Assembly: GCA_034722095.1 (NCBI GenBank)
Contig: JAYENM010000169.1
Location: 1 to 51,508, forward strand
Source: a candidate division WOR-3 bacterium
GTDB taxonomy: Bacteria; Hydrothermota; UBA3073
Reading direction: 5' to 3'
Length of the DNA stretch: 51,508 bases
Part shown: piece by piece, positions 5,526-51,508 of the stretch
Layout: the number at the start of each line of letters is the position of its first letter
How positions within the stretch are numbered: the first letter of the stretch is position 1
Translations under genes and position numbers: made by a program
The notes under the pieces: generated by a model
Seen by the model: only the letters and a program-made list of their open reading frames with translations
The model's database searches: none
Told to the model about the DNA's origin: nothing

Positions 5526-5658
5526 AGTAAGAGTTACAATAGGGCTTTATAAAACTAAGGAGTTCGAAACGGGGTTGACCCCGTTAAATAGAAGCATTTA
5601 CCGTAGCGCTCTGGCATTTATTGTTAAGTTATTTAACGGGGTAAACGGTGAGGAAACT

Positions 5659-35875: not shown

Positions 35876-36207
35876 TGTATCTTTGCGTTATACGACACAG
35901 ACAGGCAATTTTTGACAGTTAAGCCAGTGCTATCTTGGGGTATATACGATTTGCCCGATTCATATTTGAAATTGTCTTTTGTGGTCAAAGTGATATTTTT
36001 TATCATTTGTGGTAGTGTCAAATAGAATATGAAAGAATATGACAAACCACAGTCATACGACCCGTCCTTACGGATCCGTATGGATATGGGAGGTCACAGA
36101 GTAAATTTAATTCTCTGTGCTCTCCAAAAGAGTTTCCTCTGAAAGATAAAACGGAAAAGATAATTGCCTGTGCTATTGAAGTCCATTCAACTTTAGGTCC
36201 AGGTCTG

Positions 36208-36597
36208 TTGGAGAGTGTTTATGAGGAAGCGTTGGCGTATGAATTTGAGTTGAGGGGAATAAATTTTGAAAGGCAAAAAGAGATTATGCTTGAGTATAAA
36301 GGGAAAAGCATAGGTCCGCATCGGATAGATTTTTTAATAGAAGAACAGGTGATATTAGAGATAAAGGCAACAGAGGGAATGAAGAAGATATTTGAGGCAC
36401 AGGTTTTAACATATATGAAAGCAATAAAGAAAAAAGTGGGACTACTTATAAATTTCAATGTAGAAAGGTTGAAAGACGGGATAAAAAGATTGGTCTTATC
36501 CGTGCGGATCCGTATGAATAAGAGGTCACAGAGGGGAGGGAAAAGAATCTTTTGTAATTCCTTAATACTGAACATTCTCTGTGTTCTCTGTGGTTAA
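36208..36597 (+). CDS. GxxExxY-family protein (PD-(D/E)XK-like), lacking a canonical start and with a repeat-encoded tail
   Basis: The family hallmark GPGLLESVYEEALAYEFELRGINFERQKEI...HRIDFLIEEQVILEIKA is present. Homology (KTEKIIACAIEVHSTL) extends upstream of the track's TTG start to about 36139. There is no ATG, GTG or TTG in frame after the stop at 36040-36042, only CTG. The last 30 or so codons are translated from the flanking repeat. Confidence 0.6.
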   Translation: MESVYEEALAYEFELRGINFERQKEIMLEYKGKSIGPHRIDFLIEEQVILEIKATEGMKKIFEAQVLTYMKAIKKKVGLLINFNVERLKDGIKRLVLSVRIRMNKRSQRGGKRIFCNSLILNILCVLCG

Positions 36598-36634
36598 ATT
36601 TTTGACAATACTTCATTTGTAACTGGGGGATATT

Positions 36635-36988
36635 ATGTATCAGGAAAATAAAATAGAAGCACTCCTCGCCCTTAAAGAAAGTGGAAGAATTGTGAAAATG
36701 CTGAAGTTCTATCTGAGGCCAAAGGCGGTTGAGGTCGGGAGCCGTTCAACAACATTTGAGCAAACCTTTGACAAAAGTAGTTATATGCTTACCCTGATGA
36801 CTGGGAAAGAAACACTTACCTTTGAACGACAGTTAGGACAAGGCACTCCATGGATATCCATAAGTTCACCCAAAGAAATGGCCCTTTCAGACAGAAAACT
36901 ACCCAATTTTCTGAATTCCATTATCTCTGAAGACGACATGAGAAAGCAGATACAAGAACACATAAACTCCTTTATGAAAGGGAGGTAA
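36635..36988 (+). CDS. hypothetical protein (117 aa), no recognisable motifs
   Basis: It is an intact ORF with a GGGGGA SD, in the same orientation as the downstream sensor gene. No family is recognised. Confidence 0.45.
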   Translation: MYQENKIEALLALKESGRIVKMLKFYLRPKAVEVGSRSTTFEQTFDKSSYMLTLMTGKETLTFERQLGQGTPWISISSPKEMALSDRKLPNFLNSIISEDDMRKQIQEHINSFMKGR

Positions 36989-37041
36989 CCAAGTCTATAC
37001 GGTATTGCTTTTATAAACTTATATATAACGAATGGGGTGAA

Positions 37042-38256
37042 ATGGAGAAAAATTTAAACATATCGGTTTCTTCCTTTTGTGAAGGAAAATCCGCAAAGAT
37101 ATTGACCAACATCAACGAGAGTAAGCACACAGAGGACGAGTTACATAAAGTTAACCGTGCACTTAAGCTCCTCAGTGAATGCACCCAGGCCGTGTTGCGT
37201 GCTGTGGAGGAATTGGAAGTGCTGGATGAGATATGCCATATCCCCGGTGAATGCAATCAGGCAGTGCTGTGTGCCGTGGAGGAATCGGAGCTACTGCATG
37301 AGGTATGCCGAACCATCGTGGAAGTCGGCGGATATCGAGTGGCATGGGTTAGTTCAACCGAAGAGGATAAAGATAAGACCGTGCGACCTGTGCTGTTGGC
37401 GGGATACGGGAAGGATTACCTTGACATAATAGACATCTCAAGGGTAGATACTGAAAGTGGTAGTGGTCCCACCCGCAGAGTTGCACTTCCTTTGATTGCT
37501 CACGGTCAGACCTTAGGTGTACTTAATATCTATGCCGCCGAGCCAGATGCCTTTGACCCACAAGAAGTGAGTCTGCTGACAGAACTGGCAAATTACCTGG
37601 CGTATGGCATCTCTTCCCTTAGAGATTGCTCTGAACTTAAGCAGGCTGAGGAGACACTGATAAAATCCCACCAGGTATACGAAAAACTCGTTAATACCAT
37701 TGATGGTATCGTATGGGAAGCAGATGCACAAACCCTCCAATTTTATTTTGTCAGCAAGCAAGCTGAACGACTTCTCGGCTATAGTACCCGATGTTGGCTT
37801 AAAGAAGCTGCATTCTTCGAGAACCATCTCCACCCGGATGATCGGGAACGGGTCATTGCCCTTTTGAAGAAAACAGCCGCAGAAAAGAAAACTCACGAGT
37901 TTGAATTCCGAATGTTAGCAGATGATGGACGCCCTGTGTGGCTAAGAAATACTTTCACCGTGTTTGTTAAGGACGATAAACCCATTAGGCTATGCGGAGT
38001 GATGATGAACATCACGGAACGCAAAAGGTTGAAAGAGATCATAAGAAAAGCCTATGAGCAGATAGAGCAACATATTGAGCAGTTTGCTATTTTAGTTGAG
38101 GGAACAAAAAATCCTCTGGCGGTAATAGATGGCTTAGCCAGATTAAAAGGCGATGAAACATCAAAAAAGATAAACAAGCAGGTTGAAAGGATCGAGAAAA
38201 TATTAAAACGGATTGATAGTGAATGCCTCGACACGAGAAGGTTAGAGATTTTTTGA
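37042..38256 (+). CDS. GAF-PAS sensor protein without a recognisable catalytic output domain
   Basis: GAF is marked by LLHEVCRTIVEVGGYRVAWVS...LPLIAHGQTLGVLNIYAAEPDAFDPQEVSLLTELANYLAYGI. PAS is marked by VNTIDGIVWEADAQTLQFYFVSKQAERLLGY...HPDDRERV...WLRNTFTVF...GVMMNITERKR. The C-terminal coiled coil has ILVEGTKNPLAVI where a HisKA H-box would sit, with no His, and there is no HATPase domain. Confidence 0.7.
   Translation: MEKNLNISVSSFCEGKSAKILTNINESKHTEDELHKVNRALKLLSECTQAVLRAVEELEVLDEICHIPGECNQAVLCAVEESELLHEVCRTIVEVGGYRVAWVSSTEEDKDKTVRPVLLAGYGKDYLDIIDISRVDTESGSGPTRRVALPLIAHGQTLGVLNIYAAEPDAFDPQEVSLLTELANYLAYGISSLRDCSELKQAEETLIKSHQVYEKLVNTIDGIVWEADAQTLQFYFVSKQAERLLGYSTRCWLKEAAFFENHLHPDDRERVIALLKKTAAEKKTHEFEFRMLADDGRPVWLRNTFTVFVKDDKPIRLCGVMMNITERKRLKEIIRKAYEQIEQHIEQFAILVEGTKNPLAVIDGLARLKGDETSKKINKQVERIEKILKRIDSECLDTRRLEIF
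37175..37309 (+). repeat. in-frame 72-nt tandem duplication inside the sensor gene
   Basis: GTGAATGCACCCAGGCCGTGTTGCGTGCTGTGGAGGAATTGGAAGTGCTGGATGAGATATGCC (from 37175) aligns with GTGAATGCAATCAGGCAGTGCTGTGTGCCGTGGAGGAATCGGAGCTACTGCATGAGGTATGCC (from 37247). In protein terms this is ECTQAVLRAVEELEVLDEIC / ECNQAVLCAVEESELLHEVC. Confidence 0.85.
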
Positions 38257-38281
38257 AGAAGCATCGGGAACGATAAATTAC

Positions 38282-38310
38282 TTGACAAGATGGGATTTTT
38301 GTATTACAAT
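38282..38310 (+). promoter_or_regulatory. consensus sigma70 promoter (TTGACA-N17-TACAAT)
   Basis: TTGACA is at 38282-38287, the spacer is 17 nt, and TACAAT is at 38305-38310. A duplicated copy lies at 48435-48463. Confidence 0.6.
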
Positions 38311-38376
38311 AATAGTAGTGATTTTTAAAATAGAAAACTTGCTTCTGATTTCGGGGTTAAAAGTCCGGAGAGGTAT

Positions 38377-38529
38377 ATGAAGGTTACCTTTTACCTTTCA
38401 AATATAAACAGGGAGTGTAATCTTTCCATACCCTCAATCTTTTTAATAGATAAGGTTGGGGGTATTTTTATTTTCTTTTCCACAGGATTCTTTGGATATA
38501 CGAGGTTTGTTTTACAATGCACGAAGTAA
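38377..38529 (+). CDS. candidate 50-codon micro-ORF in the conserved leader (MKVTFYLSNINRECNLSIPSIFLIDKVGGIFIFFSTGFFGYTRFVLQCTK)
   Basis: It is hand-translated and not in the track. GGAGAGG lies just upstream. A homologous 41-codon ORF sits in the same frame at 42392-42517, and the indels between the two are multiples of 3. Coding status is unproven. Confidence 0.3.
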   Translation: MKVTFYLSNINRECNLSIPSIFLIDKVGGIFIFFSTGFFGYTRFVLQCTK

Positions 38530-38711
38530 TAATTCCCAAACTTTTGGTAGTGTGAAAAAGATGTTAGACTTTTTTTCATATTTCCGTCCGAATAAGGATT
38601 TAGATCGTTTATTGGGGAAACTTTCAGAGGAGGTATAATTTGAAATGCGTTGAGGCGGTAGGAAATCGGCTATTTTTTATATTATCTTCAATTAAATAAA
38701 AAGGAGGCTGT

Positions 38712-39311
38712 ATGTCTGGAAAACCCCTTAAATTGATCGCCATATTTTTGTGTCTTTCGTCTCTTTCTTCTGTCCTTTCGGGATTCCCTCGGGTTGCTTT
38801 CGGGGGTCATTATGGAAATGTCTTCTTTAAGAATGGACTAGCAAATAAGGGAGACATTTTTCTTAAGCATTCGTTAAATAACAAATGGTCATGGTGTATC
38901 ACTCTTTTTGACTTCCATTCATATCAAACTTCACGAAGGAATAGCGATTACTATGAAGGAAATATCCTGGAGCCTGAAGAGCTTACCCTTTCTGTAGAGG
39001 AGGTGAGTCTTTATGTTGCTCCCATTTATACTTTTTGGGGAAGGCAAAATATTGAACTGTGTGTAGGTATTAATGGGGGGGTGCTTGTTATGCAAGAGAG
39101 GGGAGCATTGGGAGTATGTTATAATACAGCTGATCTTTACCCTACCGATATTTTTTTGCATACGGCGCCTTTTTTGGGAGCCAATATACGTGTTCCTAAC
39201 ACAACTCTTACCTTATCACTTTGTTATAAATTTCACCATAGCTTTGGATACTATAATCTAAATAATAATTATCTTTCCTTGGTTGGAGGAGTATCATTTG
39301 ATATATTTTAA
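38712..39311 (+). CDS. small outer-membrane beta-barrel-like protein (199 aa)
   Basis: It has a signal peptide (LIAIFLCLSSLSSVLSG), alternating hydrophobic strands and a C-terminal GGVSFDIF ending in Phe. An AAGGAGG SD is present. Confidence 0.45.
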   Translation: MSGKPLKLIAIFLCLSSLSSVLSGFPRVAFGGHYGNVFFKNGLANKGDIFLKHSLNNKWSWCITLFDFHSYQTSRRNSDYYEGNILEPEELTLSVEEVSLYVAPIYTFWGRQNIELCVGINGGVLVMQERGALGVCYNTADLYPTDIFLHTAPFLGANIRVPNTTLTLSLCYKFHHSFGYYNLNNNYLSLVGGVSFDIF

Positions 39312-39330
39312 ATTTTGATGGGAGGGTAAA

Positions 39331-40350
39331 ATGCGTAAGATGTCACACTGTCTTGGGATACTGGTTCTACTAGGAATTCTTGGGTGTCAGTACGAAGATA
39401 ATAAAGAACTCTCATTCTCACCCTATGGAATTGAGACTAACCTAAAAGACTTTTCAGAAAATAGGTGTTACGAAAATGTTAAAATGATTGCCAAGGGTAT
39501 AGCCCAATCTTTCTCCCAAATAGAAATGGCAATAGAAAGTGCTATAGAAAACTCTAGGGATAAGAGAGAGCATAAAGTAGAATTATCGGTTTTACTAAGC
39601 GAGTATGAAGACTCAGAAGGAAGGGCTATTACCATGATTCTGAGCGAGACAATGAGTGTAAAAGAATCTGATCTTTTTAGCTTGTTAGGGTCTATATATC
39701 CTGTGCCTTATATTTTCATACCCCAGGGGTGTAAGAAGTGGAGTAACGACGAACCTCCTGTGATAGCAGTTACTCCACCCTGCGACGATGAGGAAGTAGA
39801 AGGTATAATCGCTTATAGCACTGATGGTGTAGAATTGATACTTCCCAAAGAATCCTCTCCTGAATTTCCAGTCTTGGTTATCACAGCCGAACCACCTTTT
39901 GAAGAAAATGAAGATGAAGAAGAAAAAAGAGACGAAGTCAAGGGGGGTCCTTATAATACTTACTGTCATAAATTCATTCTTTATAAATTTGGGGATCCTT
40001 GGTGGGATTCAAAGCCAGAGATATATACTTTACTTCATTCGTATCATGGATCAGGCTACAGTGAGAAGAGAACCGATTTTCCAGGAGTGGACGAGAAGGG
40101 GAAGACCTATGTATTTGCATGGCCAGGAGAGTATATAGGATACTCTTCTACAGCCTCGGGATTTGTTGATTTGCAAGTATGGGATGATGACTCCTGGTGG
40201 GGAGAACCTTTTGGCAGAGACGATCTTATTCAACATATATACGGTAGTAGTATTAGGGACTTAATAAATTATCAAGGTCCTACAGGGCCTGCAGAAGGAT
40301 GGGTAGGGAGTACTTCGGGGGCGCGGTTATATTTAGTGATAGCCTATTGA
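39331..40350 (+). CDS. lipoprotein of unknown function (339 aa)
   Basis: It has the lipobox LLGILGC, an acidic linker EENEDEEEKRDE and a Trp-rich C-terminal domain (GDPWWDSKPEIY, WDDDSWWGEPFGRDD). No family is recognised. Confidence 0.55.
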   Translation: MRKMSHCLGILVLLGILGCQYEDNKELSFSPYGIETNLKDFSENRCYENVKMIAKGIAQSFSQIEMAIESAIENSRDKREHKVELSVLLSEYEDSEGRAITMILSETMSVKESDLFSLLGSIYPVPYIFIPQGCKKWSNDEPPVIAVTPPCDDEEVEGIIAYSTDGVELILPKESSPEFPVLVITAEPPFEENEDEEEKRDEVKGGPYNTYCHKFILYKFGDPWWDSKPEIYTLLHSYHGSGYSEKRTDFPGVDEKGKTYVFAWPGEYIGYSSTASGFVDLQVWDDDSWWGEPFGRDDLIQHIYGSSIRDLINYQGPTGPAEGWVGSTSGARLYLVIAY

Positions 40351-40493
40351 CCAAAGAACAGGATTTATCTATAGTTTTGGCGGGAGATTTGGGAAGGTCT
40401 TTTATTAACCCGGAAGGTTAAACCGGGGTATCCACTCTGGAATACCACGTCTCGCTTTTAATAAGCGCTAAATATTTTCCAAATTTGTTTTGA

Positions 40494-40643
40494 AAAAGGT
40501 TTAAAAAACTCGTAGATGGTGAAGTTAAGGCAGGTTATTATGATGTGAGGCTGGATGGCAGAAGTCTCCCATCAGGCATCTATTTCGCAAGGCTTAAAAC
40601 TGATAGTTATGAGGAGACGAAGAAGATAGTATTGATAAAATGA
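40494..40643 (+). pseudogene. orphan relic of a T9SS C-terminal sorting domain
   Basis: The open frame has no start codon: KRFKKLVDGEVKAGYYDVRLDGRSLPSGIYFARLKTDSYEETKKIVLIK*. It is colinear with the C25 gene tail KMLVDDRLEAGYHIIKLDSENLPSGIYFARLVTNNYEATKKLVLMK. Its stop overlaps the ATG of the next gene. Confidence 0.75.
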
Positions 40644-41608
40644 AGAGAATTCTTATAGGTCTCATAGTTATACTGCCCTGTGTGGTCTACTCATCCGATG
40701 ATGCGAGTTTTTTGATAGTAACCCCGGGGGGAAGAGCTGCGGGGCTATCATCGGCATTTATGGCAATCTCGGACGATATCTACGCATCTTACTACAATGA
40801 CGCCGGATTAGGATTCCAGAACGGCTTGTCTTTTGGTGGTACTGGTGGATGGTGCCCATATTCCCTTATTTTTGATGGAGAGGAAAGGTATGATTTCTGG
40901 GGAGTCTCCTTCCCTCTCACAATAATCGGCGGAAGAATAGGCATTAGCGCTATTTATAACCATAAAGATGGCGGCACAGATATCTCGCACAAGCTCTCCT
41001 ATGGGAGAAGGATTGGCAGAGACCTTTCCATTGGCCTTGGGGTGAGACTGCTTTCTATCAGTCCTATGTTCCCTATGTGGGATATAAGGATGGATAATTA
41101 CTATTCTGCGGTTGATATTTCAATGCTATATAGGAAAGAAAACTTAAGTATCGGTTGCGCCATCCAAAATATAGGACCTTCTATCACATACAGTTATACC
41201 TTATTTGAAGATACTACATTTGAAGGAAGATTTGAAGCACCTTTGCCCTCTCTTTTACGAATGGGTCTCGGTTATAAATCCCCAAATCTTGGAGACCACA
41301 GCATTCTGGGGACAGCGGACATCGTTAGAAATTTTACAGAGTCGATCAATGATGAGAATTTCTTCTATTTTTCTTTGGGGATTGAATACTCCTATAAAGA
41401 TTTCCTATTTCTTCGTGGTGGCTGCCTATTGGATATAAATAAAAATACAGAAAGGACTGGTTTTAGCTATGGTATAGGGATCAAATTGGAAGAAGGATTT
41501 TACATCGACTTAGGGGTTGAGCCAGAATATCCGCTCCAAACTAATAGGGTTAAACTCTCCTTCAGGGGGCAATATCCACCAAACTCATGGACACATACGA
41601 AAAGATAA
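40640..41608 (+). CDS. second, divergent PorV/PorQ-like outer-membrane beta-barrel protein
   Basis: After the signal peptide comes FLIVTPGGRAAGLSSAFMAISDDIYASYYNDAGLGF. This parallels the PorV/PorQ N-terminal motif seen in the 20037-21047 product. Confidence 0.5.
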   Translation: MKRILIGLIVILPCVVYSSDDASFLIVTPGGRAAGLSSAFMAISDDIYASYYNDAGLGFQNGLSFGGTGGWCPYSLIFDGEERYDFWGVSFPLTIIGGRIGISAIYNHKDGGTDISHKLSYGRRIGRDLSIGLGVRLLSISPMFPMWDIRMDNYYSAVDISMLYRKENLSIGCAIQNIGPSITYSYTLFEDTTFEGRFEAPLPSLLRMGLGYKSPNLGDHSILGTADIVRNFTESINDENFFYFSLGIEYSYKDFLFLRGGCLLDINKNTERTGFSYGIGIKLEEGFYIDLGVEPEYPLQTNRVKLSFRGQYPPNSWTHTKR

Positions 41609-42055
41609 AGAAATTGCCAATAATGAGGTAGAACTGAAATAAAATATTACCTCGCCTAGCTATCAGGATGTCTGTTGAATATGGGGACGGTTCTTTTTTT
41701 CTTGACACCTTGCATTTATGGTAGCACTATTGCATAGTGCTCCATTTATTGATAACATTTTGTTCTTATCTATGGATCTGATAGATTTATAGCTGATATG
41801 GAGAGAAAATACGAAGTCAAGAAATTCCCTGCCCCGTGGAGTTAGTTTTGCTACTCCACAGGGCAGGCCAAAGAAGATATGAAAAACAGTCCGAAAAAGA
41901 GAACCGTTCCCATTACAGTCCACACCCATTACCCATTACATTCAAAATAGGGGTAACTCCCCCAAGTGGAGCCTCTAAAACCTTTATGGACATTGGGCTT
42001 AGAAATATTAAACAGTCATAACTTGCGAAAATTTGATAAACCAGTAGTTTAAAAG

Positions 42056-42072
42056 TGTAAAATTTCTTTACA
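42056..42072. promoter_or_regulatory. variant enhancer palindrome A': TGTAAA-atttc-TTTACA
   Basis: The extended arms are AAGTGTAAA/TTTACACTT (42053-42075). Its relative position is the same as site A of the first module. Confidence 0.5.
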
Positions 42073-42175
42073 CTTTTCGGGGTGTTATGGCTAACCTTTC
42101 CTTCAAGGGGATTTCTCCCAAGTCCTTAAAAAATCAAAACTTGTAGAAATTCGACAAAATTGGCAGTCGGAGGAG

Positions 42176-42192
42176 TGTAAAGTTTCTTTACA
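42176..42192. promoter_or_regulatory. variant enhancer palindrome B': TGTAAA-gtttc-TTTACA
   Basis: It lies 120 nt after A', exactly as B lies after A in the first module. Confidence 0.55.
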
Positions 42193-42207
42193 CTTCCATC
42201 AAGAAAA

Positions 42208-42224
42208 TGTAAAGATTCTTTACC
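42208..42224. promoter_or_regulatory. variant enhancer palindrome C': TGTAAA-gattc-TTTACC
   Basis: It lies 32 nt after B' and 103 nt before the promoter. These are the same spacings as in the first module. Confidence 0.5.
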
Positions 42225-42310
42225 ATTTTTAGGTCGCCATGACTGCCCCCTTTAGAGGAATTTTTTTCAAATCCCTGTCAGTTCACGCATTACGTAGATT
42301 CTCATTCTTT

Positions 42311-42327
42311 CTGACACGCTTTTTGCT
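42311..42327 (+). promoter_or_regulatory. second sigma54-type promoter, CTGACACGCTTTTTGCT
   Basis: The 17-mer is identical to 35626-35642. Confidence 0.55.
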
Positions 42328-42391
42328 TTTATAATATAGTGAAAGGTTGATTTCTGATTATGGGAATAAGGGTCCGAGGGAAGTGTTTTAT

Positions 42392-42517
42392 ATGAAATGT
42401 GTCCCTTACTTCCAACACAGCGAAGAAGATAATACCTTTACGCCCTCAATCCTGTTAATACATATGACTGGGAGTATTTTTATTTTCTTCTATGCGGGGT
42501 TTACAAGGTACGTCTAG
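42392..42517 (+). CDS. candidate 41-codon micro-ORF in the conserved leader (MKCVPYFQHSEEDNTFTPSILLIHMTGSIFIFFYAGFTRYV)
   Basis: It is hand-translated and not in the track. It is homologous to 38377-38529, sharing PSI(F/L)LI...G(G/S)IFIFF. Coding status is unproven. Confidence 0.3.
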   Translation: MKCVPYFQHSEEDNTFTPSILLIHMTGSIFIFFYAGFTRYV

Positions 42518-42520
42518 AAT

Positions 42521-42550
42521 TGCCCTGCGTGTCTGGTGATGCGCAGGGCA
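42521..42550 (+). other. 9-bp GC-rich hairpin between the micro-ORF and the BNR gene (possible attenuator/terminator)
   Basis: TGCCCTGCG (42521-42529) pairs with CGCAGGGCA (42542-42550). It starts 4 nt after the micro-ORF stop and is followed by TGATGGGTTGTTTAT. Confidence 0.4.
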
Positions 42551-42589
42551 TGATGGGTTGTTTATGAAGTAGGCATCCTGGAGGTTTTT

Positions 42590-44869
42590 ATGTATCTTTT
42601 TATTATAATTCAGTTATTCCTTTCACCAGTCTGGGAGACACACGGACCCTATGGAGGAGAGACTATATGCATTGCCATAGACCCAAATAAAACTCTCTGT
42701 ATGTATGCGGGGACAGGGAATCCTGAATTAATAACAACGAATGGAGACGGTGTTTATGTAAGCACAGACGGTGGAGAAAACTGGAACCATACCTCACTCG
42801 GCTCTACTTTTGTTTGGGATATTGCAGTTGATTCTCATGGAGAAGTGTATGCTGCTACTCGTGGGTATGGAATTTTCAAGAGCACAGACAGAGGCACCAC
42901 CTGGAATTCAATAAATAACGGACTGTCATGTCTATATATATCTGATATTGCTATTGAGCCTCTCAATGACAGCGTTGTCTATGTAGGGACCGGAGACAAG
43001 TTTTATGGTAGTGTGTGGGATTGGTCAATGGATGGTATATACAAATCTACAGATAGAGGAGAAACCTGGAGTAGACTGGGACTGGACGGCACGACTGTAT
43101 CTTCCATTGTGGTGCATCCTGTGGCGCCAGAAACTCTCTATGCAGCGGTATATGATGTACCATGGGATAATACATCAAGTGAAGTAGGGATTTACAAGTC
43201 CTGCGATTACGGGGTTACCTGGATGTACAAAGCAGATATAGCTGCGAATGATTTAGTTATAGATCTGGTAAATCCCAATACAATTTACGCTGCCCCCAAG
43301 TGGGATTGGGATCACTTCTGGAAAAGCACGGATGGTGGAGAAACCTGGACATACTGTTATATGGGTATTTTTACGAATGAAATACGGACAATAGCGATTG
43401 AGCCATTCAACGACAGCATTATCTATATGGGTTGTGCCTCATATCCCACAATGGATGAAAAATTCGGTGGTATTTATAAATCTATAGATGCAGGGGATAC
43501 ATGGAGCGAAGTGATGGTAGGTATGCCAGACGAGCCTGTACATTCTATTGTTATTGGTATTGACAATCCCGATAAGGTCTATGCTACATGCAGTGGTCCT
43601 GGGGTGTATAAAAGTGTTGACAAGGGAGAAACCTGGGCATGGTCGTCTAATGGTATGAGGCTGCAGATAGTGACAGATTTGAGTTCGGCAAACGAAGACA
43701 TCTTTGCTGCGACAAGGTCCGGCGTATATAAAAGAGAGAGCTCAAGTGAAGTGTGGCATAATCGGAGCTCTGGGATAAGACAGGTTAGGACTATGTGCAT
43801 CGCTGCCGCGCCGTCTGCACCTGATACTATTTACCTCGGCACATTTGTCGGTGCGGGACCAACGCCATCTTATAGAAGTTTTGATGGTGGGGAGACTTGG
43901 ACCGGGTGTGCAGGAGGAGGAATTTGTCATATCCAGGTTAATCCTCTCAATCCCAGTGTATACTATGCTGTAGAGAAATTCAATTTTAGAAAAGTTTACA
44001 AATCAACTGATGCAGGCTCCACTGTGACCACTACCTTGGATACCACTAGTCCCGGATGTGTAGCAATAGATCCTGTTGATACAAACATAGTCTATGTAGG
44101 TGGCGGTTCTGGCAGCGCATGGGTTCTCAAAACTGTTGAGGGGGGCACAAGTTGGATAAGTATCTCCCAAGGGTTGGATTCAGGATTTGTCTGCGATATA
44201 GAGTTAGATAATTTCAACGAGGACATCCTCTATGCCGTTGTGAATGCCGATCTCTTTGGATGGGAAGGTAATGGAAAACTCTTCAGGTATAACGGAGATT
44301 TATGGGAAAGAGTAGGGGTTGATCTCCCAGAATTGCCATTCTCCTCCCTTAAGGTGGATCCAGTACTTCAGAGTGTTCTGTATATTGGCACCTATGGAGG
44401 AGGTGTATACAGAAGCATTGATGGAGGGATAGTGTGGAATGAGTTGAACGAGGGCCTCGGGAACCTCTTTGTAAACTGTATCATGTTAGACCCTCTCGAC
44501 CACACGAAGATATATGCAGGAACTAATGCCGGTGTATATTCAATCACCTCTCCCCCCGGTATTGAGGAAGAGAGTGCTATTACTCTCTCTCTTCTCACGG
44601 TCTCTCCAAATCCCTTCAGCACAACTACCGCTATCACGCTATCAGACTATCAGGCTAACGCTTCACGCTTTACGCCTTACACCTTACGCATCTACGACCT
44701 CACAGGCCGCCTCGTCAAACGATTTACGATTTTCGATTCACGGCTTACGAGTATAGTCTGGAATGGAAGAGATGACTCTGGCAATTCTTTACCTCCAGGG
44801 GTCTATTTCGCAAGACTTGAATCTGGAAAGACTGAATATAAAGCTGAGAAGATTGTAAAATTGAGGTAA
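42590..44869 (+). CDS. BNR/Asp-box (sortilin/Ycf48-like) beta-propeller protein with T9SS sorting domain
   Basis: At least 11 Asp-boxes are present: STDGGENW, STDRGTTW, STDRGETW, SCDYGVTW, STDGGETW, SIDAGDTW, SVDKGETW, SFDGGETW, STDAGSTV, TVEGGTSW and SIDGGIVW. The tail is VSPNPFSTTTAI...IYDLTGRLVKRF...GVYFARLESG...KIVKLR. The N-terminus MYLFIIIQLFLSP lacks a basic n-region. Confidence 0.8.
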   Translation: MYLFIIIQLFLSPVWETHGPYGGETICIAIDPNKTLCMYAGTGNPELITTNGDGVYVSTDGGENWNHTSLGSTFVWDIAVDSHGEVYAATRGYGIFKSTDRGTTWNSINNGLSCLYISDIAIEPLNDSVVYVGTGDKFYGSVWDWSMDGIYKSTDRGETWSRLGLDGTTVSSIVVHPVAPETLYAAVYDVPWDNTSSEVGIYKSCDYGVTWMYKADIAANDLVIDLVNPNTIYAAPKWDWDHFWKSTDGGETWTYCYMGIFTNEIRTIAIEPFNDSIIYMGCASYPTMDEKFGGIYKSIDAGDTWSEVMVGMPDEPVHSIVIGIDNPDKVYATCSGPGVYKSVDKGETWAWSSNGMRLQIVTDLSSANEDIFAATRSGVYKRESSSEVWHNRSSGIRQVRTMCIAAAPSAPDTIYLGTFVGAGPTPSYRSFDGGETWTGCAGGGICHIQVNPLNPSVYYAVEKFNFRKVYKSTDAGSTVTTTLDTTSPGCVAIDPVDTNIVYVGGGSGSAWVLKTVEGGTSWISISQGLDSGFVCDIELDNFNEDILYAVVNADLFGWEGNGKLFRYNGDLWERVGVDLPELPFSSLKVDPVLQSVLYIGTYGGGVYRSIDGGIVWNELNEGLGNLFVNCIMLDPLDHTKIYAGTNAGVYSITSPPGIEEESAITLSLLTVSPNPFSTTTAITLSDYQANASRFTPYTLRIYDLTGRLVKRFTIFDSRLTSIVWNGRDDSGNSLPPGVYFARLESGKTEYKAEKIVKLR

Positions 44870-44890
44870 ACAAAATCAGAGGAGGTTTAT

Positions 44891-47800
44891 ATGCTTAAGA
44901 AAATAGCAAGTATTATACTGGCGATAGGTTTTGCTCATATCGTCTTTGCCGATGTAACTCATAATGTCTATTTCTCATCATCGGATTTGACCTTCAGACA
45001 GGAGAAGGGATACGACATCGTGGAGTTAAAGGGATGCAACCTGATGGATGTGGTTGGCGAGCCCATGCTTTCTGTAAGATATATGAACCTCATTATCCCA
45101 GCGGGAAATAAGGTATCCAGAATAGAGTTTCCATTAGCCAATTCACAAAACATAGGAACCTACAACATCTATCCAGCGCAGCCACCAATCCCTGTAAGTA
45201 GTAGTGAACCGCCTGAATGGGTGGAACCAGACCCTCTTGTGTATAGTTCTGACGAACCCTATCCAGGCAAACTCGCAGAGGTTGTCCATGAGGGATATTT
45301 TAACGGGAATAAGATTGTGATGCTTGCGGTCTATCCACTCCAATGGATGCCAAGCACTGGAGAGCTCGTGTTGTATGACCACATACAGTTAAGACTCGTG
45401 TTGGAATCATCATCCGAAACTCCAGTCTATCCACAGATTATGACCGAGCAGAGTTACAAACTCTATAAATCTGCGTTGAGTTCGTTGATTGCAAATGACA
45501 AAGACAAGAGTGCCTATGGATATGAACCTACTGTTGTGACTCCACAGTCTGCTCCTGCTGAGTTTATACTACCTGCATCTTCTACAGAGATAATAGAGTA
45601 TATGATAATTACCCCCAATGCACTCACCTCATCTTTTAACTCTTTTGTGGAATGGTTATGGAAGAAGGGGATAAGAGCAGGGATTATCACTGTAGAGGAT
45701 ATACTTGCTTCATATCCTGGGGTTGACGATGCCCAGAAGGTGAAGAGATGCATCTGGAAGTGGTGGCAATTTAACTCTCTCACTTATGTGCTTCTCGCTG
45801 GAGATGATGGTATTGTACCTTTTAGATACGGTTGGGCCAGGAATAATCTAAATTTTCCACCACAGACTCGCGTAGATTCATTTTATATCATTCCTACTGA
45901 TCTTTACTTCTCGGATCTTTCTGGCAACTGGGATGTTGATGGAGACAATCGCTGGGGTGAGCCAGAAGATAGTATTGATATATATCCTGAGGTATATGTA
46001 GGGAGAGTGTTGGTACGGAACATGGAAGAAGTTAACAACTGGTTACAGCGGGTGTTGAATTACGAGCGAAATCCAGGAAATGCGTCTCTTATGAAAGATG
46101 TTATGTGGAGTTATCAAGAATATGACCCAGATACATCACATATGGGAGGAAATTTCATCAACTTTCAATTTCTTGTTAATCAGGCTATAGCGCATTTTCC
46201 TGAAGACTATACCCATTATCATTATTATGCTATGAGCTCCACTGAGAATCTATCTGGTCTGAATGAGGGATACGGGCAGGTATGTCTTTACGCCCACGGT
46301 TGGCCAGATAGATGGACAACGAGAACCTGGCCTGTTAGTTGGGTGTTTTCTTGGCCATCCGCTGGTGGCGGAGACCTGTACCATCTCTCTAATCCAAACA
46401 AGTATGGTGTTGTGTATTCAATTAGTTGTATGAATGCAATGTTTGATAAGATCTTGGAGGATGTTTGGCATTGCGAGGATACTACAATTGCAGATGGATT
46501 TACAGATGCTTATACAAATGGAGGCGAAGCCGCCTTTCTTGGAAACAGCAGATACGGATGGTCCCATACCTCTCCTTCTCTTCACCGGTGTTTTCTGGAT
46601 GTTCTATTCAATTCAAGCGACCTGTCTTCCAAGGTTGGATATGCTGAGGGAATATCCAAAACTCTTGGTGGGTCTAGGTATGTTTGGTATTCTCACAACC
46701 TGTTTGGCTCTCCGGAGACTCCTGTCTGGACTGATGTGCCACCACCTTTGACAGCAAGCCATCCATCCCGATTATATGTGGATCCAGAGATTACTCTGCT
46801 CCTCACTGTAACGGTTACATCTAATGGAAGTCCTGTAGAGGATGCTCTTGTTTGCCTATACAAGCCTTCAGATGATCCAGTAATTTACAAAAGAGGCTAT
46901 ACCGATGCAAATGGTGAGGTCACTTTTGATCTCCGTATTCGAAACACGGGATATCTATATGTTACTGCGACCAAACACAATTTCAAACCTTACGAAGGTA
47001 GAATTCTGTGCACCTACCCTCCCTGTCCCTTTCTCTATACCTATAATGGTTCAGAATTCATAGAGGATAACAATATCCTTTCAGGTTCTGGAACTGTAGA
47101 AGATTGGTATAAGCTGAGGGAGAAACCCCTTAAAGATGAAAATAGATATAGGTTACAGATAAAGGAGAATAACGATGAGCATTCATTCTTTGACAGGGTG
47201 AGACTTTATGCTATTGACCATCCAGACTCTGTTGAAGTATTCGTGACACAGGATGGAGAGATTGTCTCCGTTTCTATGATGTCCGCTTCTCAATCAGTTA
47301 TTGGGGAGGATGGAGTTGATTATACTACAGTGCTTCTTGACAGAGATAGTGTATGGGTTGAGGCAAATGAGGTTGAAAAGATCACCGCTGAATTTGGAGG
47401 AACTAATGGAGGAGACTACGTCATACTCGCACCACCAGGGCCGAAGCCAAGACTTATGGTTGAAGAAGCAAATGGTTCAAGTTTTGAAACTGTCGGTTCC
47501 ATTCGTGGAAGAGAGAACCCATCCTATGAGGTGCTTCCTCTTACAGTTTCATCTCCCGAGGAGGTGAGCCTGAGATTCACATTCACTGATGTCTCCCAGA
47601 GACTTGACTATATACGGTTTGGGAAGAGAAACAATGCTCCATATCATATAAAACCCTGTCCACTTGTGGCTGCTACCCACTCTGACATTGGTTCTGTCAA
47701 GCAGAAACTACTTATTGATGATGAGAACTATGCAGAACTTCTTCCCTGTGATACGATAACACTTGAGTTTGCAGTTGTTGATATAGAACCTGGATGGGTG

Positions 47801-48142
47801 AGAGATTTTGTGTTTGTATCAAATGGATATTATGTAACAGAAGGCAAAGGCGGTTCACAGACTGCATATAGCAGTATTCCTTTGGTTCATTCTCTATCAC
47901 TATATCCAAATCCAGCAAAGAATGATATGAATATCAGATTTGGTATACCGAGAGAAGAGAAGGTCTCTCTTAAAATTTATGATGTATCAGGCAGAGAGGT
48001 AAAGATGCTTGTAGATGACAGACTTGAAGCAGGTTATCATATTATAAAATTGGATAGTGAGAATCTTCCCTCTGGCATCTACTTCGCAAGGCTTGTGACC
48101 AATAACTATGAGGCGACAAAGAAGCTCGTGCTGATGAAGTAG
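44891..48142 (+). CDS. peptidase C25 (gingipain-like cysteine protease) with propeptide, unknown C-terminal module and T9SS sorting domain
   Basis: It has a signal peptide and a C25 propeptide-like N-terminus (FRQEKGYDIVELKGC...GEPMLSVRYMNLIIP). Other markers are YMIITPNALTSSFNSFVEWLWKKGIRAGIITVEDI, YVLLAGDDGIVPFRY, FSDLSGNWDVDGDNRWGE, the His region VCLYAHGWPDRW and the Cys region VVYSISCMNAMFD. The tail is YPNPAKNDMNIRF...IYDVSGREVKML...GIYFARLVTN...KLVLMK. Confidence 0.8.
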   Translation: MLKKIASIILAIGFAHIVFADVTHNVYFSSSDLTFRQEKGYDIVELKGCNLMDVVGEPMLSVRYMNLIIPAGNKVSRIEFPLANSQNIGTYNIYPAQPPIPVSSSEPPEWVEPDPLVYSSDEPYPGKLAEVVHEGYFNGNKIVMLAVYPLQWMPSTGELVLYDHIQLRLVLESSSETPVYPQIMTEQSYKLYKSALSSLIANDKDKSAYGYEPTVVTPQSAPAEFILPASSTEIIEYMIITPNALTSSFNSFVEWLWKKGIRAGIITVEDILASYPGVDDAQKVKRCIWKWWQFNSLTYVLLAGDDGIVPFRYGWARNNLNFPPQTRVDSFYIIPTDLYFSDLSGNWDVDGDNRWGEPEDSIDIYPEVYVGRVLVRNMEEVNNWLQRVLNYERNPGNASLMKDVMWSYQEYDPDTSHMGGNFINFQFLVNQAIAHFPEDYTHYHYYAMSSTENLSGLNEGYGQVCLYAHGWPDRWTTRTWPVSWVFSWPSAGGGDLYHLSNPNKYGVVYSISCMNAMFDKILEDVWHCEDTTIADGFTDAYTNGGEAAFLGNSRYGWSHTSPSLHRCFLDVLFNSSDLSSKVGYAEGISKTLGGSRYVWYSHNLFGSPETPVWTDVPPPLTASHPSRLYVDPEITLLLTVTVTSNGSPVEDALVCLYKPSDDPVIYKRGYTDANGEVTFDLRIRNTGYLYVTATKHNFKPYEGRILCTYPPCPFLYTYNGSEFIEDNNILSGSGTVEDWYKLREKPLKDENRYRLQIKENNDEHSFFDRVRLYAIDHPDSVEVFVTQDGEIVSVSMMSASQSVIGEDGVDYTTVLLDRDSVWVEANEVEKITAEFGGTNGGDYVILAPPGPKPRLMVEEANGSSFETVGSIRGRENPSYEVLPLTVSSPEEVSLRFTFTDVSQRLDYIRFGKRNNAPYHIKPCPLVAATHSDIGSVKQKLLIDDENYAELLPCDTITLEFAVVDIEPGWVRDFVFVSNGYYVTEGKGGSQTAYSSIPLVHSLSLYPNPAKNDMNIRFGIPREEKVSLKIYDVSGREVKMLVDDRLEAGYHIIKLDSENLPSGIYFARLVTNNYEATKKLVLMK

Positions 48143-48392
48143 ACTCATATAGTCGCGTGGGGTCGTGTAGTAAAAAATCGGGTTAAATGACCTTGTATAC
48201 GAGAATGTTCGGGAGAAAGAGATATTATGAACCCGTGAGGGAGACTTCTAATGTAAGTCTCCGAAGGTGATGAAACATCAAAAAAGATAAATAAGCAGGT
48301 TGAAAGGATCGAGAAAATATTAAAACGGATTGATAGTGAATGCCTTGACATCGAGAAGGTTAGAGATTTTTTGAAGAAGCATCGGGAATGAT

Positions 48393-48424
48393 AGAGGTCT
48401 CTGAAAAAATACCCAGAGACCTCT
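48393..48424. repeat. 11-bp perfect hairpin inserted in copy 2 of the cassette
   Basis: AGAGGTCTCTG-aaaaaatacc-CAGAGACCTCT is absent from the otherwise colinear copy at 38272. The insertion is bracketed by TGATA / TGATG. Confidence 0.8.
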
Positions 48425-48434
48425 GATGAATTAC

Positions 48435-48463
48435 TTGACAAGAGGGGATTTTTGTATTATGAT
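48435..48463 (+). promoter_or_regulatory. sigma70 promoter, duplicated copy (TTGACA-N17-TATGAT)
   Basis: TTGACA is at 48435-48440, the spacer is 17 nt, and TATGAT is at 48458-48463. Confidence 0.55.
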
Positions 48464-48637
48464 ATTAATAGTGATTTTTTAAATAGAAAACTTGCTTCCA
48501 ATTTCGGGAGTTAAAAGTCCTTTTCTTTTGTGCGAGGTTTGTAAGGTTCGTTTAGGATAGCCTTACGTATCAATTTACACGCAGGGTAAATGGGTTTTTT
48601 AAAACAACAATGAGTAAGCTCTATAAGGAGGGAAAAA

Positions 48638-49453
48638 ATGAATAAAAAGGCTTTGAGATGGTTGGTGTTGGTCCCCTTTGTTTTAGGGATAGGTTCCAAC
48701 ACCCAAGCAATAGGACAAAGAGTAGAAGAACACAAAACTCAAGCGGATACTACGAAAAAATTTGTATCTGTTGAGGAAACAATGAAAGAACTCGTTGAAA
48801 AGGGTATAAGAAATGAAAAGCTACATGTTCCTGAACTCATCGAAGAATTAAGAATAGCGATTCCAGATACATCCGCGAAGGGCTCTGGGATAATATGGCG
48901 GCTAGAGAAGTCAAGAGATCTACGAGCCTTACCAGTACTTTGTGAGGCTCTGTTAAATGCCAATCGAGCAATTCTAAGAACCGAGGCAGCGAGTGCTATA
49001 GCCTATATTGAAGACTATAATAAGGATACTACCGCATTGCCAATCCTTCGAGAAGCACTAAGGGACTCAGTCACAGATGTAAAACTTCACGCTGCACTTA
49101 GCTTAGTTTTCCTTGGCGATAAGATATACCCTTTGGAAGTCCTAACAGCTCTTGCCAGGGGTGAAAATATGGAAAATTGGACTGTGGATTGGGGAGGGTA
49201 TATGGGGTTAGAGAATGCGACGGATGAGGAGATTAAAAAGCAAAAAGAATATTTTAAAGAAACTATGCGCAGAAGAGCAATAGAAACACTTGGCATAATT
49301 GGAACAGAAGCATCCTACAAAGTTTTGAAAGAGATAATTTCCAAATGCAGCGACGAGAGTATCCACTACGGAGACAAGATACTTAATGTAAGCGAATATG
49401 CCAAAGAAGTATTTGAAAAGGCGCAAAAGGGAGATCTGCCATGCAAACCGTAA
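48638..49453 (+). CDS. exported HEAT-repeat (PBS-lyase-type) protein
   Basis: It has a signal peptide (LVLVPFVLGIGSNTQA) and HEAT-like helix pairs (ALPVLCEALLNANRAILRTEAASAIAYI, ALPILREALRDSVTDVKLHAALSLVFLGD, RRRAIETLGIIGTEASYKVLKEII). A GGAGGGA SD is present. Confidence 0.65.
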   Translation: MNKKALRWLVLVPFVLGIGSNTQAIGQRVEEHKTQADTTKKFVSVEETMKELVEKGIRNEKLHVPELIEELRIAIPDTSAKGSGIIWRLEKSRDLRALPVLCEALLNANRAILRTEAASAIAYIEDYNKDTTALPILREALRDSVTDVKLHAALSLVFLGDKIYPLEVLTALARGENMENWTVDWGGYMGLENATDEEIKKQKEYFKETMRRRAIETLGIIGTEASYKVLKEIISKCSDESIHYGDKILNVSEYAKEVFEKAQKGDLPCKP

Positions 49454-51508
49454 TACTAAAAGTTATAAAAAGGATATTTGTTCTGTTATTGATTACTTTT
49501 ATTGCTCCAACCTTCTTATTTTCAATTCCATATGATCGAGATGCAGTCGCTACTTATGCTGACACTTGGTGGGATGATAGGAATCCTAATTATAATAATT
49601 ATAGTCCTAACGATTGTGCAAATTTTGTATCACAATGTCTTATTGCAGGCAGAGTTAACCTATCTGAGGGTCCTGGAGTTGATGACAAGGGATGCATCCC
49701 CAATTGTGATAACTTAGATTATAACTTATACTGGTACCAGAATGCGGAATGGAACACCATTACTTATCCTTCTACTAATGTTCCCAGCAATCTTACTAAA
49801 GGAGATGTCATTATTTTTGGTGATGTAAGTGGTGACCGGTATAAACACAGTGTTATTGTGGTGGGTGGGACTGGTAGCAATGTTTATTGTGATGCTCATG
49901 ATAATGATAGATGGCACAAATCTATAACGTGGTGGTATGGTGATGGGGAGGATCAATTTGGAAGAGCAAATTTCTATCACATGCCTAATGAACTCGGCAT
50001 TGAGGAGTATTACATTCAGGTCAATTCTCCAAATGGAGGGGAGGTCTGGTATTATGATGAGACACATAATATCACATGGAATACAGGAACTCTTGCGGAG
50101 ACTCCCGCCGATAGTGTTATTATCCACTATTCTACAGATGGAGGTTCTACTTATCCCTACAGGATAGCAAAGGTTGTAAATAGTTCTGGAGATTTTCCAT
50201 GGTATGGAAGTTACTCATGGACTATACCGAGAAACCCATCTACCAGCTGCAAGGTCAGGGTGAGAGGTTACTTCCAATCAGATCCCTATTACCACGGTGA
50301 TGCAAGCGATGATAACTTCACTATAAAAAATCCTTTGTATCTTTCTGGATGGATGGAATGGATAAATCCTCCTAAATCTCCTAAATCAGGAGTTGAGCCA
50401 ATGGATGTCAATCATTATCGTGCCCATCTCTACTGGACTTTTAACGCCTCTTACACTCCCTCCCTTTATGGGCTCTATCGCAAACTTAAATATCCCCTAC
50501 CCGGGGATCCTACCGGCTGGGTGAGAATATACTATGGTAGCAACAAATCTTATGTCGACCCTTACGATTTTCAGCTGGGTAGTGGTGCCTGGTATTATGT
50601 TAGAGCCTACATTACAGGGGTCCCCTATATCCAATCGAATACTATCTACCTTGCTCCTGGTATTCAAACTTCTTCATTTATCTATGTCTGGGATGGAAAG
50701 GAATTTATTGAGGACAGCAATATCCTTGCAGGATCCGGGAATGAAGAAATCGAGGAAGACTGGTGTAAACTGAGGGAAGGGCCTGTTGAAGAGGGCAATA
50801 GATACAGATTGCAGATAAGAGAAGAGGGTAATGAATATTCATTCTTTGATAAGGTGAGGTTTATGGCAATCGACCATCCTGACAGCATTGAGATATTTGT
50901 TACACCAGATGGTGATATTGTCCCTGTTTCTTCTATGATCGCTTCTCAATCGGTTATGGGGGAGAATGAAGTGGATTATACAAGTCATCTTCTTAATAAT
51001 GATAATATTTATGTTGAAGCAAATGAGGTTGATAAGATTACCGGGGTACTTCCTCTTACAGTCTCCTCTGAGGATGAGAGTCTGAGATTTATATTCACTG
51101 ACGGCTCTCGGATACTTGACCATATACGATTTGTAAAGAGAAACAATGCTCCATATCACATAAAACCCTGTCCTCTTGTATCCGCTACCCACTCTGACAT
51201 TGGTTCTGTTAAGCAGAAGCTATTAAACGATGATGAAAACTATGCAGAGCTGCTTCCCGGTGATACGATAACACTTGAGTTTACCGCAGTTGATATAGAA
51301 CCTGAATGGGTGCGGGATTTTGTGTTTGTCTCAAATGGGTACTACATCACAGAAACTGAAGGCGGTGGAGCCCAGACTGGGTATAGCAGTATTCCTTTGG
51401 TTCATTCTCTATCACTATATCCAAATCCAGCAAAGAATGATATGAATATCAGATTTGGTATACCGAGAGAAGAGAAGGTCTCTCTTAAAATTTATGATGT
51501 ATCAGGCA
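49441..51508 (+). CDS. secreted Amidase_5/NlpC-P60-like putative peptidoglycan amidase + Ig-like domain + shared C-terminal module + T9SS sorting domain; 3' end outside the window (not in the ORF track)
   Basis: I hand-translated it and the frame is open from the ATG at 49441 to the last base with no stop. It overlaps the HEAT gene by 13 nt, and AAGGGAG lies upstream. After the signal peptide come YDRDAVATYADTWWDDRNPNYNNYSPNDCANFVSQCLIAG (Cys nucleophile motif), GDVIIFGD, YKHSVIVVG and VYCDAHDNDRWHK. From 50677 it is colinear with 47030-48142 of the C25 gene. It ends in YPNPAKNDMNIRFGIPREEKVSLKIYDVSG. Confidence 0.8.
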   Translation, partial: MQTVILKVIKRIFVLLLITFIAPTFLFSIPYDRDAVATYADTWWDDRNPNYNNYSPNDCANFVSQCLIAGRVNLSEGPGVDDKGCIPNCDNLDYNLYWYQNAEWNTITYPSTNVPSNLTKGDVIIFGDVSGDRYKHSVIVVGGTGSNVYCDAHDNDRWHKSITWWYGDGEDQFGRANFYHMPNELGIEEYYIQVNSPNGGEVWYYDETHNITWNTGTLAETPADSVIIHYSTDGGSTYPYRIAKVVNSSGDFPWYGSYSWTIPRNPSTSCKVRVRGYFQSDPYYHGDASDDNFTIKNPLYLSGWMEWINPPKSPKSGVEPMDVNHYRAHLYWTFNASYTPSLYGLYRKLKYPLPGDPTGWVRIYYGSNKSYVDPYDFQLGSGAWYYVRAYITGVPYIQSNTIYLAPGIQTSSFIYVWDGKEFIEDSNILAGSGNEEIEEDWCKLREGPVEEGNRYRLQIREEGNEYSFFDKVRFMAIDHPDSIEIFVTPDGDIVPVSSMIASQSVMGENEVDYTSHLLNNDNIYVEANEVDKITGVLPLTVSSEDESLRFIFTDGSRILDHIRFVKRNNAPYHIKPCPLVSATHSDIGSVKQKLLNDDENYAELLPGDTITLEFTAVDIEPEWVRDFVFVSNGYYITETEGGGAQTGYSSIPLVHSLSLYPNPAKNDMNIRFGIPREEKVSLKIYDVSG

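Follow-up and report, generated by a model that had tools for sequence, protein, structure and literature searches.

A shared C-terminal cassette for type IX secretion on a C25 protease and an amidase of a candidate division WOR-3 bacterium, and its probable shuffling and homogenisation by gene conversion

Here we examined a 51,508-nucleotide stretch of DNA from a candidate division WOR-3 bacterium (assembly GCA_034722095.1, contig JAYENM010000169.1; hereafter the window), in which two genes for secreted proteins with unrelated catalytic heads end in the same C-terminal region. The window is one contig (C169) of a 2.0-Mb bin that comprises 358 contigs, is 88% complete and has a contamination estimate of 1.27%; its close relatives carry the names candidate division WOR-3 or Candidatus Stahlbacteria. 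The first of the two genes (44891-48142, + strand) is an open reading frame (ORF) for a gingipain-like C25 cysteine protease of 1083 amino acids. The second (49441-51508, +) is an ORF of 689 codons for an Amidase_6 protein (PF12671, 67.4 bits), and is open at its 3' end, where the contig stops. Between the two, and outside the repeat that they share, lies a gene for a HEAT-repeat protein of 271 amino acids (48638-49453, +; ORF with PF13646 and PF03130 matches).

From its N-terminus the C25 protein consists of a signal peptide, the C25 propeptide (Propeptide_C25 PF08126, 35.5 bits), the catalytic domain (Peptidase_C25 PF01364, 148.8 bits, both scores being above the cut-off), an immunoglobulin (Ig)-like domain identified by a weak match, a module of about 290 residues, and a C-terminal sorting domain (CTD) of the type IX secretion system (T9SS). 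Membership of family C25 was assigned by the profile match and the His/Cys dyad (AHG..., SISC...) was judged by eye; the hydrophobic N-termini MLKKIASIILAIGFAHIVFA and MQTVILKVIKRIFVLLLITFIAPTFLFS were also read by eye from the sequence, without a predictor, as signal peptides. The CTD of the C25 gene, which is of type A, occupies 47900-48142 (+) together with the TAG stop codon. It is matched by Por_Secre_tail PF18962 (52.6 bits, cut-off 27, amino acids 1004-1080) and by TIGR04183 (47.7 bits, cut-off 23), and the sorting-domain match stops 3 residues short of the protein end (amino acid 1080 of 1083). The CTD of the amidase gene is cut by the contig end after its first 31 codons (51415-51508, +), and this incomplete domain matches profile positions 1-31 with 22.3 bits for PF18962 and 18 bits for TIGR04183. 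Our search of the bin for T9SS components covered SprA/Sov and PorU. It returned SprA/Sov (TIGR04189, 328 bits, cut-off 200) and, on a 1858-nucleotide contig, a PorU-like sortase fragment that at 276 bits falls below the cut-off of 420.

Common to the two genes is a tail of about 370 residues, hereafter the cassette, made up of the uncharacterised beta domain of about 290 residues (the module) and the type A sorting domain. In the C25 gene the module (47024-47899, +; amino acids 712-1003) starts at CPFLYTYNGSEF and is all-beta in an AlphaFold2 model. The amidase gene carries a short variant (50677-51414, +; seen by BLASTP and alignment) with a change of CP to SS at its start. An earlier note on this DNA, made from the letters and their ORFs, had described the two genes as colinear from 47030 and 50677 respectively, and the BLASTP alignment (C25 amino acids 714-1034 against amidase amino acids 413-689, E = 2e-128, with one 47-residue gap) and the blastn alignments agree with this; every motif that it quoted was found in the sequences. 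As it had also stated, DNA identity climbs toward the 3' end, from about 65-70% to 100%: blastn gave 73% identity between 47054-47387 and 50701-51043 and 87% between 47530-47993 and 51045-51508, and the identical run counted back from the contig end is 127 nucleotides, 47867-47993 (+) being an exact match to 51382-51508. The segment that the note had reported as missing from the amidase copy is indeed missing, although its length is 47 codons (47390-47530, +; AEFGG...PSYE, C25 amino acids 834-880, seen both as the BLASTP gap and in the alignment) and not about 46. In the model the 47 codons correspond to three to four strands of a variable middle subdomain (strands 133-137, 145-152 and 155-163).

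When the search was widened from the two copies to the whole bin by tblastn and blastn, further copies came to light. The cassette is carried by at least 7 genes of the bin on different heads, and the C25/amidase pair is not special among them. The seven heads are two C25 proteases (that of the window and one of 1270 amino acids with a full copy on contig C247), the amidase, a phospholipase-C-like protein (a weak Zn-phospholipase-C-like match with a full copy on C209), a phosphoesterase-like protein (of which the end precedes a full copy on C175), a GH113/BNR-like protein (C13) and an HExxH protein (C178), the copies on the last two contigs being cut by contig ends. Two more contigs, C348 and C159, hold tails without a head, also cut by contig ends. 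The CTDs linked to a cassette are 78-98% identical in protein to the C25 CTD, and the other CTDs of the bin 28-45%. Among relatives outside the bin, the genomes of the same genus (G001-G003) and of a sister genus (G005-G007), as well as genome G017, each hold several copies of the full module. Single weak full-length matches were found in G016, G024 and G010, and elsewhere in the class and phylum the matches are mostly confined to the CTD.

Some individual copies have features of their own. The full copy at C175:11326-12753 contains an in-frame TAG within the conserved EHS(Y/F)xD motif, and represents either a pseudogene or a sequencing error. An fn3-like domain directly 5' of the module is common to the second C25 protease (C247:~7500-7837) and the GH/BNR-like gene (C13:~5200-5541), and its last 25 or so residues are identical in the two (NES.PSGTIRVDPEYYPCPFLYAYNGSEF). 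Elsewhere in the window, at 40494-40643 (+), we noted a segment of 49 codons (...GYYDVRLDGRSLPSGIYFARLKTDSYEETKKIVLIK, then a stop) that corresponds to the 3' half alone of a T9SS sorting domain and is 57% identical to the C25 tail; there are stops in all frames between this segment and the upstream ORF at 39331-40350, and it looks like the remnant of a decayed CTD.

The cassette shuffling that the earlier note had proposed is borne out by the occurrence of the same module and CTD behind unrelated heads, both in this bin and in relatives, where the heads include a subtilisin, an M10-like protease, CARDB and Sortilin/BNR. Two proteins from other assemblies are particularly informative for the amidase gene, as they share with it the stalk (50002-50676, +) that runs from GIEEYYIQVNSPNGG to the module start, at about 88-98% nucleotide identity. 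P0156 (ENA ERZ778604, NODE_20181, locus L063), from an independent assembly, is the product of a complete 739-residue gene with a CTD; this gene is 90% identical in nucleotides to window positions 50002-51508, has the same 47-codon deletion, and upstream of GIEEYYIQVNSPNGG has a weak Peptidase_M10-like head in place of Amidase_6. P0153 (JGI 3300031921, locus L064), also encoded by a complete gene, has the same stalk and an undeleted module behind a third head with a DCSG motif. Since stalk, module and CTD are shared in nested fashion, the shuffled units are themselves nested, as (stalk) + module + CTD. Three heads are seen on a near-identical stalk from GIEEYYIQVNSPNGG onward (49441-50001 compared with L063:1702-2268 and L064:469-1029), and from these alignments the junction of head and stalk looks like a sharp recombination point. 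The idea that the 47-codon gap makes the amidase copy an inactive relic is not supported: an independent assembly contains an intact gene with this short variant, and the conserved N and C parts of the variant are modelled with a predicted local distance difference test score (pLDDT) above 90. Both window genes most likely belong to a lineage-specific Stahlbacteria (WOR-3) family of T9SS cargo in which unrelated catalytic heads sit on one C-terminal cassette. The cassette provides long DNA homology between genes, and recombination within it exchanges heads and cassettes.

Gene conversion, which the earlier note had offered as the other option, finds support in a gradient of synonymous divergence, in a Sawyer-type permutation test and in incongruent segment trees. 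The proportion of synonymous differences (pS, Nei-Gojobori) between the two window copies in successive blocks is 0.73, 0.51, 0.41, 0.38, 0.34, 0.44 and 0.04, and every cassette pair shows a drop in pS, from 0.7-0.9 in the 5' part to 0.3-0.55 in the 3' part. The longest concordant run of the C25/amidase pair covers 64 of 539 polymorphic sites (p = 2e-4) when the test sequence extends beyond the window, and 32 of 487 sites (p = 6e-4) with window sequence only; permuting the 3' part only again gave p = 2e-4. Other pairs show comparable steps: sliding identity between C209 and the C25 gene is 40-50% and then 85-93% from alignment column 750, and C13 and C178 are 97-98% identical over about 120 nucleotides. 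Segment trees of 31 copies from seven genomes are incongruent. The copy G003_C340, for example, is 72-77% identical in nucleotides to G006/G007 copies in its N part and about 70% in its C part. In the CTD, its identity is 53-57% with G006_C28 and G007_C18 and 68% with G007_C80, but 83-87% with unrelated paralogs of genus-mates, with which it shares only about 55% identity in the N part. The amidase gene, finally, is 93-97% identical to L063 over 50002-51171 and 77-85% thereafter, and is identical to the C25 gene from 51382 on; the drop in identity after 51171 and the identity with the C25 gene from 51382 therefore require at least 2 breakpoints.

Because synonymous and non-coding sites are homogenised as well, purifying selection is insufficient as an explanation and conversion or recombination is favoured, the non-coding sites past the stop codon entering this argument on the presupposition, taken up below, that contig C209 is the continuation of the amidase gene. 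Gene conversion or recombination is thus supported as the mechanism. Chance, or selection alone, as the source of the 127-nucleotide identity was also considered, and was rejected on the basis of pS, the permutation test and the identity past the stop codon. Conversion repeatedly overwrites the 3' part of one copy by another, so that CTDs cluster by lineage and module bodies by orthology.

A mosaic pattern was also observed at the 5' side of the C25 gene. Its ortholog L038 (genome G003, Candidatus Stahlbacteria CSMAG_552, contig C179), compared with 44305-47541, is 88% identical at 44305-45848 and 96% identical at 46688-47541. The N part of the module is 99.7% identical in nucleotides, the heads differ by 25% in protein, and for the catalytic core (45849-46687) blastn finds nothing that matches. 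The C25 head is therefore a mosaic, and recent exchange between species has taken place.

The figure of 127 nucleotides requires separate comment. Other contig ends in the bin overlap by exactly 127 nucleotides (C175/C149, C247/C44 and C209/C9/C37) and, since they do, 127 is the k-mer of the assembler and not the length of the identical tract; the contig names of the closest relative also contain "k127". The figure therefore marks a branching point of the assembly graph, 47867-47993 being the first 127-mer common to both paths, and the real identical tract is probably longer. These k = 127 overlaps also agree with the suggestion of the earlier note that the identical stretch had caused the assembly break: the assembler (k = 127) would have been stopped by the shared tract, leaving a contig end there. 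Five further contig ends lie inside cassette copies, namely those on C13, C178, C348 and C159 and the 5' end of C209. Cassettes of this sort fragment bins and truncate cargo genes.

The window end overlaps C209:1-22 by 22 nucleotides, and C209:1-122 is identical to 47972-48093 (122 nucleotides); between there and a TAA stop, 4 mismatches are seen. With C209 as the presumed continuation, the identical coding tract would measure 227 nucleotides (47867-48093), and the shared tract seems to go on along C209, past the stop codon, as far as about 48520. The non-coding stretch 3' of the C25 gene (48143-48520, +) is common to C209 after the tail, and in pairwise alignment the two differ by three indels (12, 42 and 35 nucleotides) and are otherwise about 97-100% identical. 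It contains a sigma70-like promoter match close to consensus, TTGACA-17-TATGAT, at 48435-48463 (promoter scan); a scan of 48100-48700 found no terminator, and a scan of 36000-51508 with Rfam returned nothing relevant to the shared stretch. Beyond about 48520 the two loci diverge, with the HEAT-repeat gene in the window and other ORFs on C209. The most recent tract in the window begins at 47867/51382 and most likely crosses the stop codon and about 380 nucleotides of downstream non-coding DNA with the promoter-like site; it would then run onto C209. We also noted that the stretch is one copy of a dispersed non-coding element of about 350 nucleotides, of which there are four large copies with 81-95% identity (48143-48520, 38147-38489, C209:249-690 and C209:7010-7256); two to three of the four sit 3' of cassette-bearing cargo genes, and a 33-nucleotide core of the element occurs on six more contigs.

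Whether the module is a known domain, a question that the earlier note had raised, was addressed with profile searches. With the module alone as query, neither Pfam nor NCBIfam gave any family, even at thresholds of E <= 10 and E <= 1, and no PDB chain was found at E <= 1 in a sequence-profile search. No named family was thus recovered, and yet the module is far from rare: a profile built from five copies recovered, from 1.84 billion proteins, 3,097 clusters (50%-identity representatives) at E <= 1e-3, 360 of them at E <= 1e-30. In 97 of the 147 representative proteins with a complete module end, the protein stops 12 residues or less after that end, and 40 of the 147 carry an extension the size of a CTD; Por_Secre_tail was found in 12 of 60 module proteins scanned. 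Across the family the heads are mostly those of secreted hydrolases and include C25, C13, C1 and S8 peptidases, PKD, PPC, CARDB and transglutaminase domains. Named sources are Stahlbacteria, Zixibacteriota, Ignavibacteria, many Bathyarchaeia, Methanomassiliicoccales and Njordarchaeota, and the homologous clusters are for the most part found at the very C-terminus of Bathyarchaeia proteins. The starting CP motif is usually preceded by a Gly-rich linker (GGGG).

The AlphaFold2 model of the module, built with 40 sequences, is all beta (pLDDT 87.8, predicted template modelling score 0.86). In the model of the short amidase variant, the N and C parts retain a pLDDT above 90 and confidence is lost in the middle only (48-81). 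Conservation is concentrated in residues 1-100 and 197-275, with a variable middle, and the invariant polar residues are DNN, ExxxEH, DH, HS, D, YxE and R. In module numbering, the invariant positions are D17 N18 N19, E50, E54 H55, D59, D67 H68, H221 S222, D235, Y238, E240, R262 and Y272. We read the model as a conserved core formed from the N- and C-terminal thirds, which carries these residues, with a variable subdomain inserted in the middle. A Foldseek search of the module model against the PDB gave no match at E <= 0.001; viral capsid jelly rolls appeared near the top of the list with a probability below 0.3, and were disregarded. From these observations the module would be a non-catalytic binding or retention domain. 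Once the protein had been exported by the T9SS and had lost its CTD, the module would lie at the C-terminus and keep the enzyme bound to the cell surface or to a polymeric substrate. A broader view of the same data is that the modules form a large undescribed domain family, whose members close secreted hydrolases as their very last domain in Bathyarchaeia and other archaea and precede a T9SS signal in Stahlbacteria, Zixibacteriota and Ignavibacteria. The family would then be a general surface-retention or ligand-binding anchor that moved between archaea and bacteria, with the polar cluster as a metal or glycan site; we regard this view as a whole as tentative and rather doubtful.

Taken as a whole, the explanation that we consider likely is that of a shuffled, conversion-homogenised T9SS cargo cassette with a binding or retention domain, within which the account of cassette recombination and conversion is largely shown. 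Several points weigh against it. The join between the window end and C209 rests on a 22-nucleotide overlap and on graph logic, and a strict k = 127 unitig would have begun 5 nucleotides earlier than C209 does. Relative to L063, the 3' end of the amidase gene looks replaced from about 51172, but L063 may itself be converted, and the conversion may have run in either direction. The similarity of CTDs among cassettes could partly reflect a recent common origin of the whole cassette, and since the bin represents the consensus of a population sampled by metagenomics, some "paralogs" on short contigs could stem from co-assembled strains. For the module, the reading of its function draws on position, fold class and conservation only, and its Foldseek matches are weak (TM <= 0.52 over about 140 residues, none at E <= 0.001).

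Three other explanations were weighed against this one. If the second copy, or its 3' part, were an assembly artefact, that is a chimeric join through the repeat, there would be no genuine gene combining the amidase with module and CTD; the fragmentation of the bin (358 contigs, 88% complete), the many contig ends within module copies and the position of this contig end, exactly one k-mer of 127 nucleotides into sequence shared with the C25 gene, are all what such an artefact would give. However, the roughly 700 nucleotides of the amidase module upstream of the 127-mer reach no more than 65-92% identity with the other copies in the bin, so that a k = 127 graph could not have joined there, and the different assembly that contains P0156/L063 has a complete 739-residue gene with the same stalk, 47-codon deletion and CTD, with P0153/L064 as a second complete relative. 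Given these independent complete genes and the copy-specific sequence, we hold a chimeric join to be extremely unlikely. A further explanation is that strains or species were assembled together and that the copies are their alleles, with the mosaic arising by recombination between population genomes. The metagenomic nature of the bin allows for it, and an exchange between genomes is shown by the C25 gene, whose module N part is 99.7% identical in nucleotides to that of another species representative (G003) behind heads that differ by 25% in protein. But both window copies lie on one contig, 3.5 kb apart and behind different heads, the contamination estimate is 1.27%, and relatives hold comparable copy numbers per genome, which makes this explanation very unlikely.

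The remaining alternative dispenses with conversion: the cassette would have been duplicated with, or fused to, each head on separate occasions, and the similarity of the 3' ends would stem from purifying selection acting on the secretion signal. T9SS CTDs are functionally constrained, nonsynonymous divergence (pN) is low across the 3' part (0.01-0.14), and cassette fusion events clearly occur. Against this, synonymous sites are homogenised too (pS 0.04 in the CTD and 0.73 at the module start), identity runs beyond the stop codon into non-coding DNA, segment trees conflict, and a comparison with the nearest relative (L063) places breakpoints within the module. Moreover, other functional CTDs of the same genome are 28-45% identical in protein, and secretion therefore does not require this particular sequence. 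We judge this alternative unlikely, and return to the shuffled and converted cassette in comparing the locus with known systems.

In Porphyromonas gingivalis, the T9SS cargo genes rgpA, kgp and hagA have common modular C-terminal adhesin domains (cleaved adhesin K1-K4, DUF2436) as well as a conserved CTD (Dashper et al. 2017, PMC5266723). As there, a C25 protease and other T9SS cargo of the WOR-3 bacterium share beta-sandwich non-catalytic modules between catalytic domain and CTD, the order is Ig-like domain, module(s) and CTD, and the modularity is combinatorial, with modules reshuffled by recombination. The WOR-3 module is, however, neither Cleaved_Adhesin PF07675 nor DUF2436 (no Pfam match at E <= 10), and no gingipain adhesin structure was among its 50 best Foldseek matches. 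It occurs once per protein and not in arrays, is found on many enzyme classes beyond proteases and haemagglutinins, and belongs to a free-living Stahlbacteria (WOR-3) bacterium; it is not known to undergo proteolytic processing or to form complexes.

The conversion itself has a parallel in babA, babB and babC of Helicobacter pylori, surface-protein paralogs whose 3' ends undergo concerted evolution by segmental gene conversion. In both systems the genes have diverged in their 5' parts and are homogenised in their 3' parts, with stretches of exact identity, homogenised synonymous sites and mosaic genes created by the tract ends. Unlike the bab genes, the WOR-3 genes carry the converted unit in a cassette of about 1.1 kb on at least 7 dispersed genes with unrelated heads, and this unit includes a large uncharacterised domain besides the sorting signal.

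For the module, the nearest structures are those of carbohydrate-binding modules (CBMs) of families CBM6, CBM35 and CBM32 (PDB 2cdp, 4qaw and 2v72, the best Foldseek matches), which are also all-beta sandwiches C-terminal to secreted hydrolases, with 130-140 superposable residues. The match is weak (probability 1.0, E = 1e-3 to 2e-2, TM 0.44-0.52 normalised to the CBM, about 140 columns), and the module differs from these families in being twice as large, in having conserved motifs of its own and in having no PDB sequence match. Distant homology at both module ends links it to the C-terminal region of FG-GAP/UnbV_ASPIC (PF07593) proteins, in the motifs CPxLYxWNG...EExxYxDxVxLxAVDHP and G.V...L...D..YA....LEF....R.Y.F..G. 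The matching stretch lies after the Pfam-defined UnbV_ASPIC domain and is itself unannotated, and the identity is about 30% in short pieces only; the middle of the module is also about 90 residues longer than in those proteins.

A literature search for T9SS in WOR-3 gave no paper, and secretion and peptidases go unmentioned in a 2025 survey of WOR-3 genomes. Concerted evolution of T9SS tails is an already known process; it is the domain family that is without description in the literature and databases searched. The domain is widespread, well predicted and common among the extracellular enzymes that Bathyarchaeia encode; once it is defined as a family, thousands of proteins would be better annotated. 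For the organism, the account given here would mean that an uncultured sediment bacterium with a small genome diversifies its secreted hydrolases by recombining one export-and-anchoring cassette onto many heads and keeping it uniform by conversion, as P. gingivalis does with its gingipain adhesin modules.

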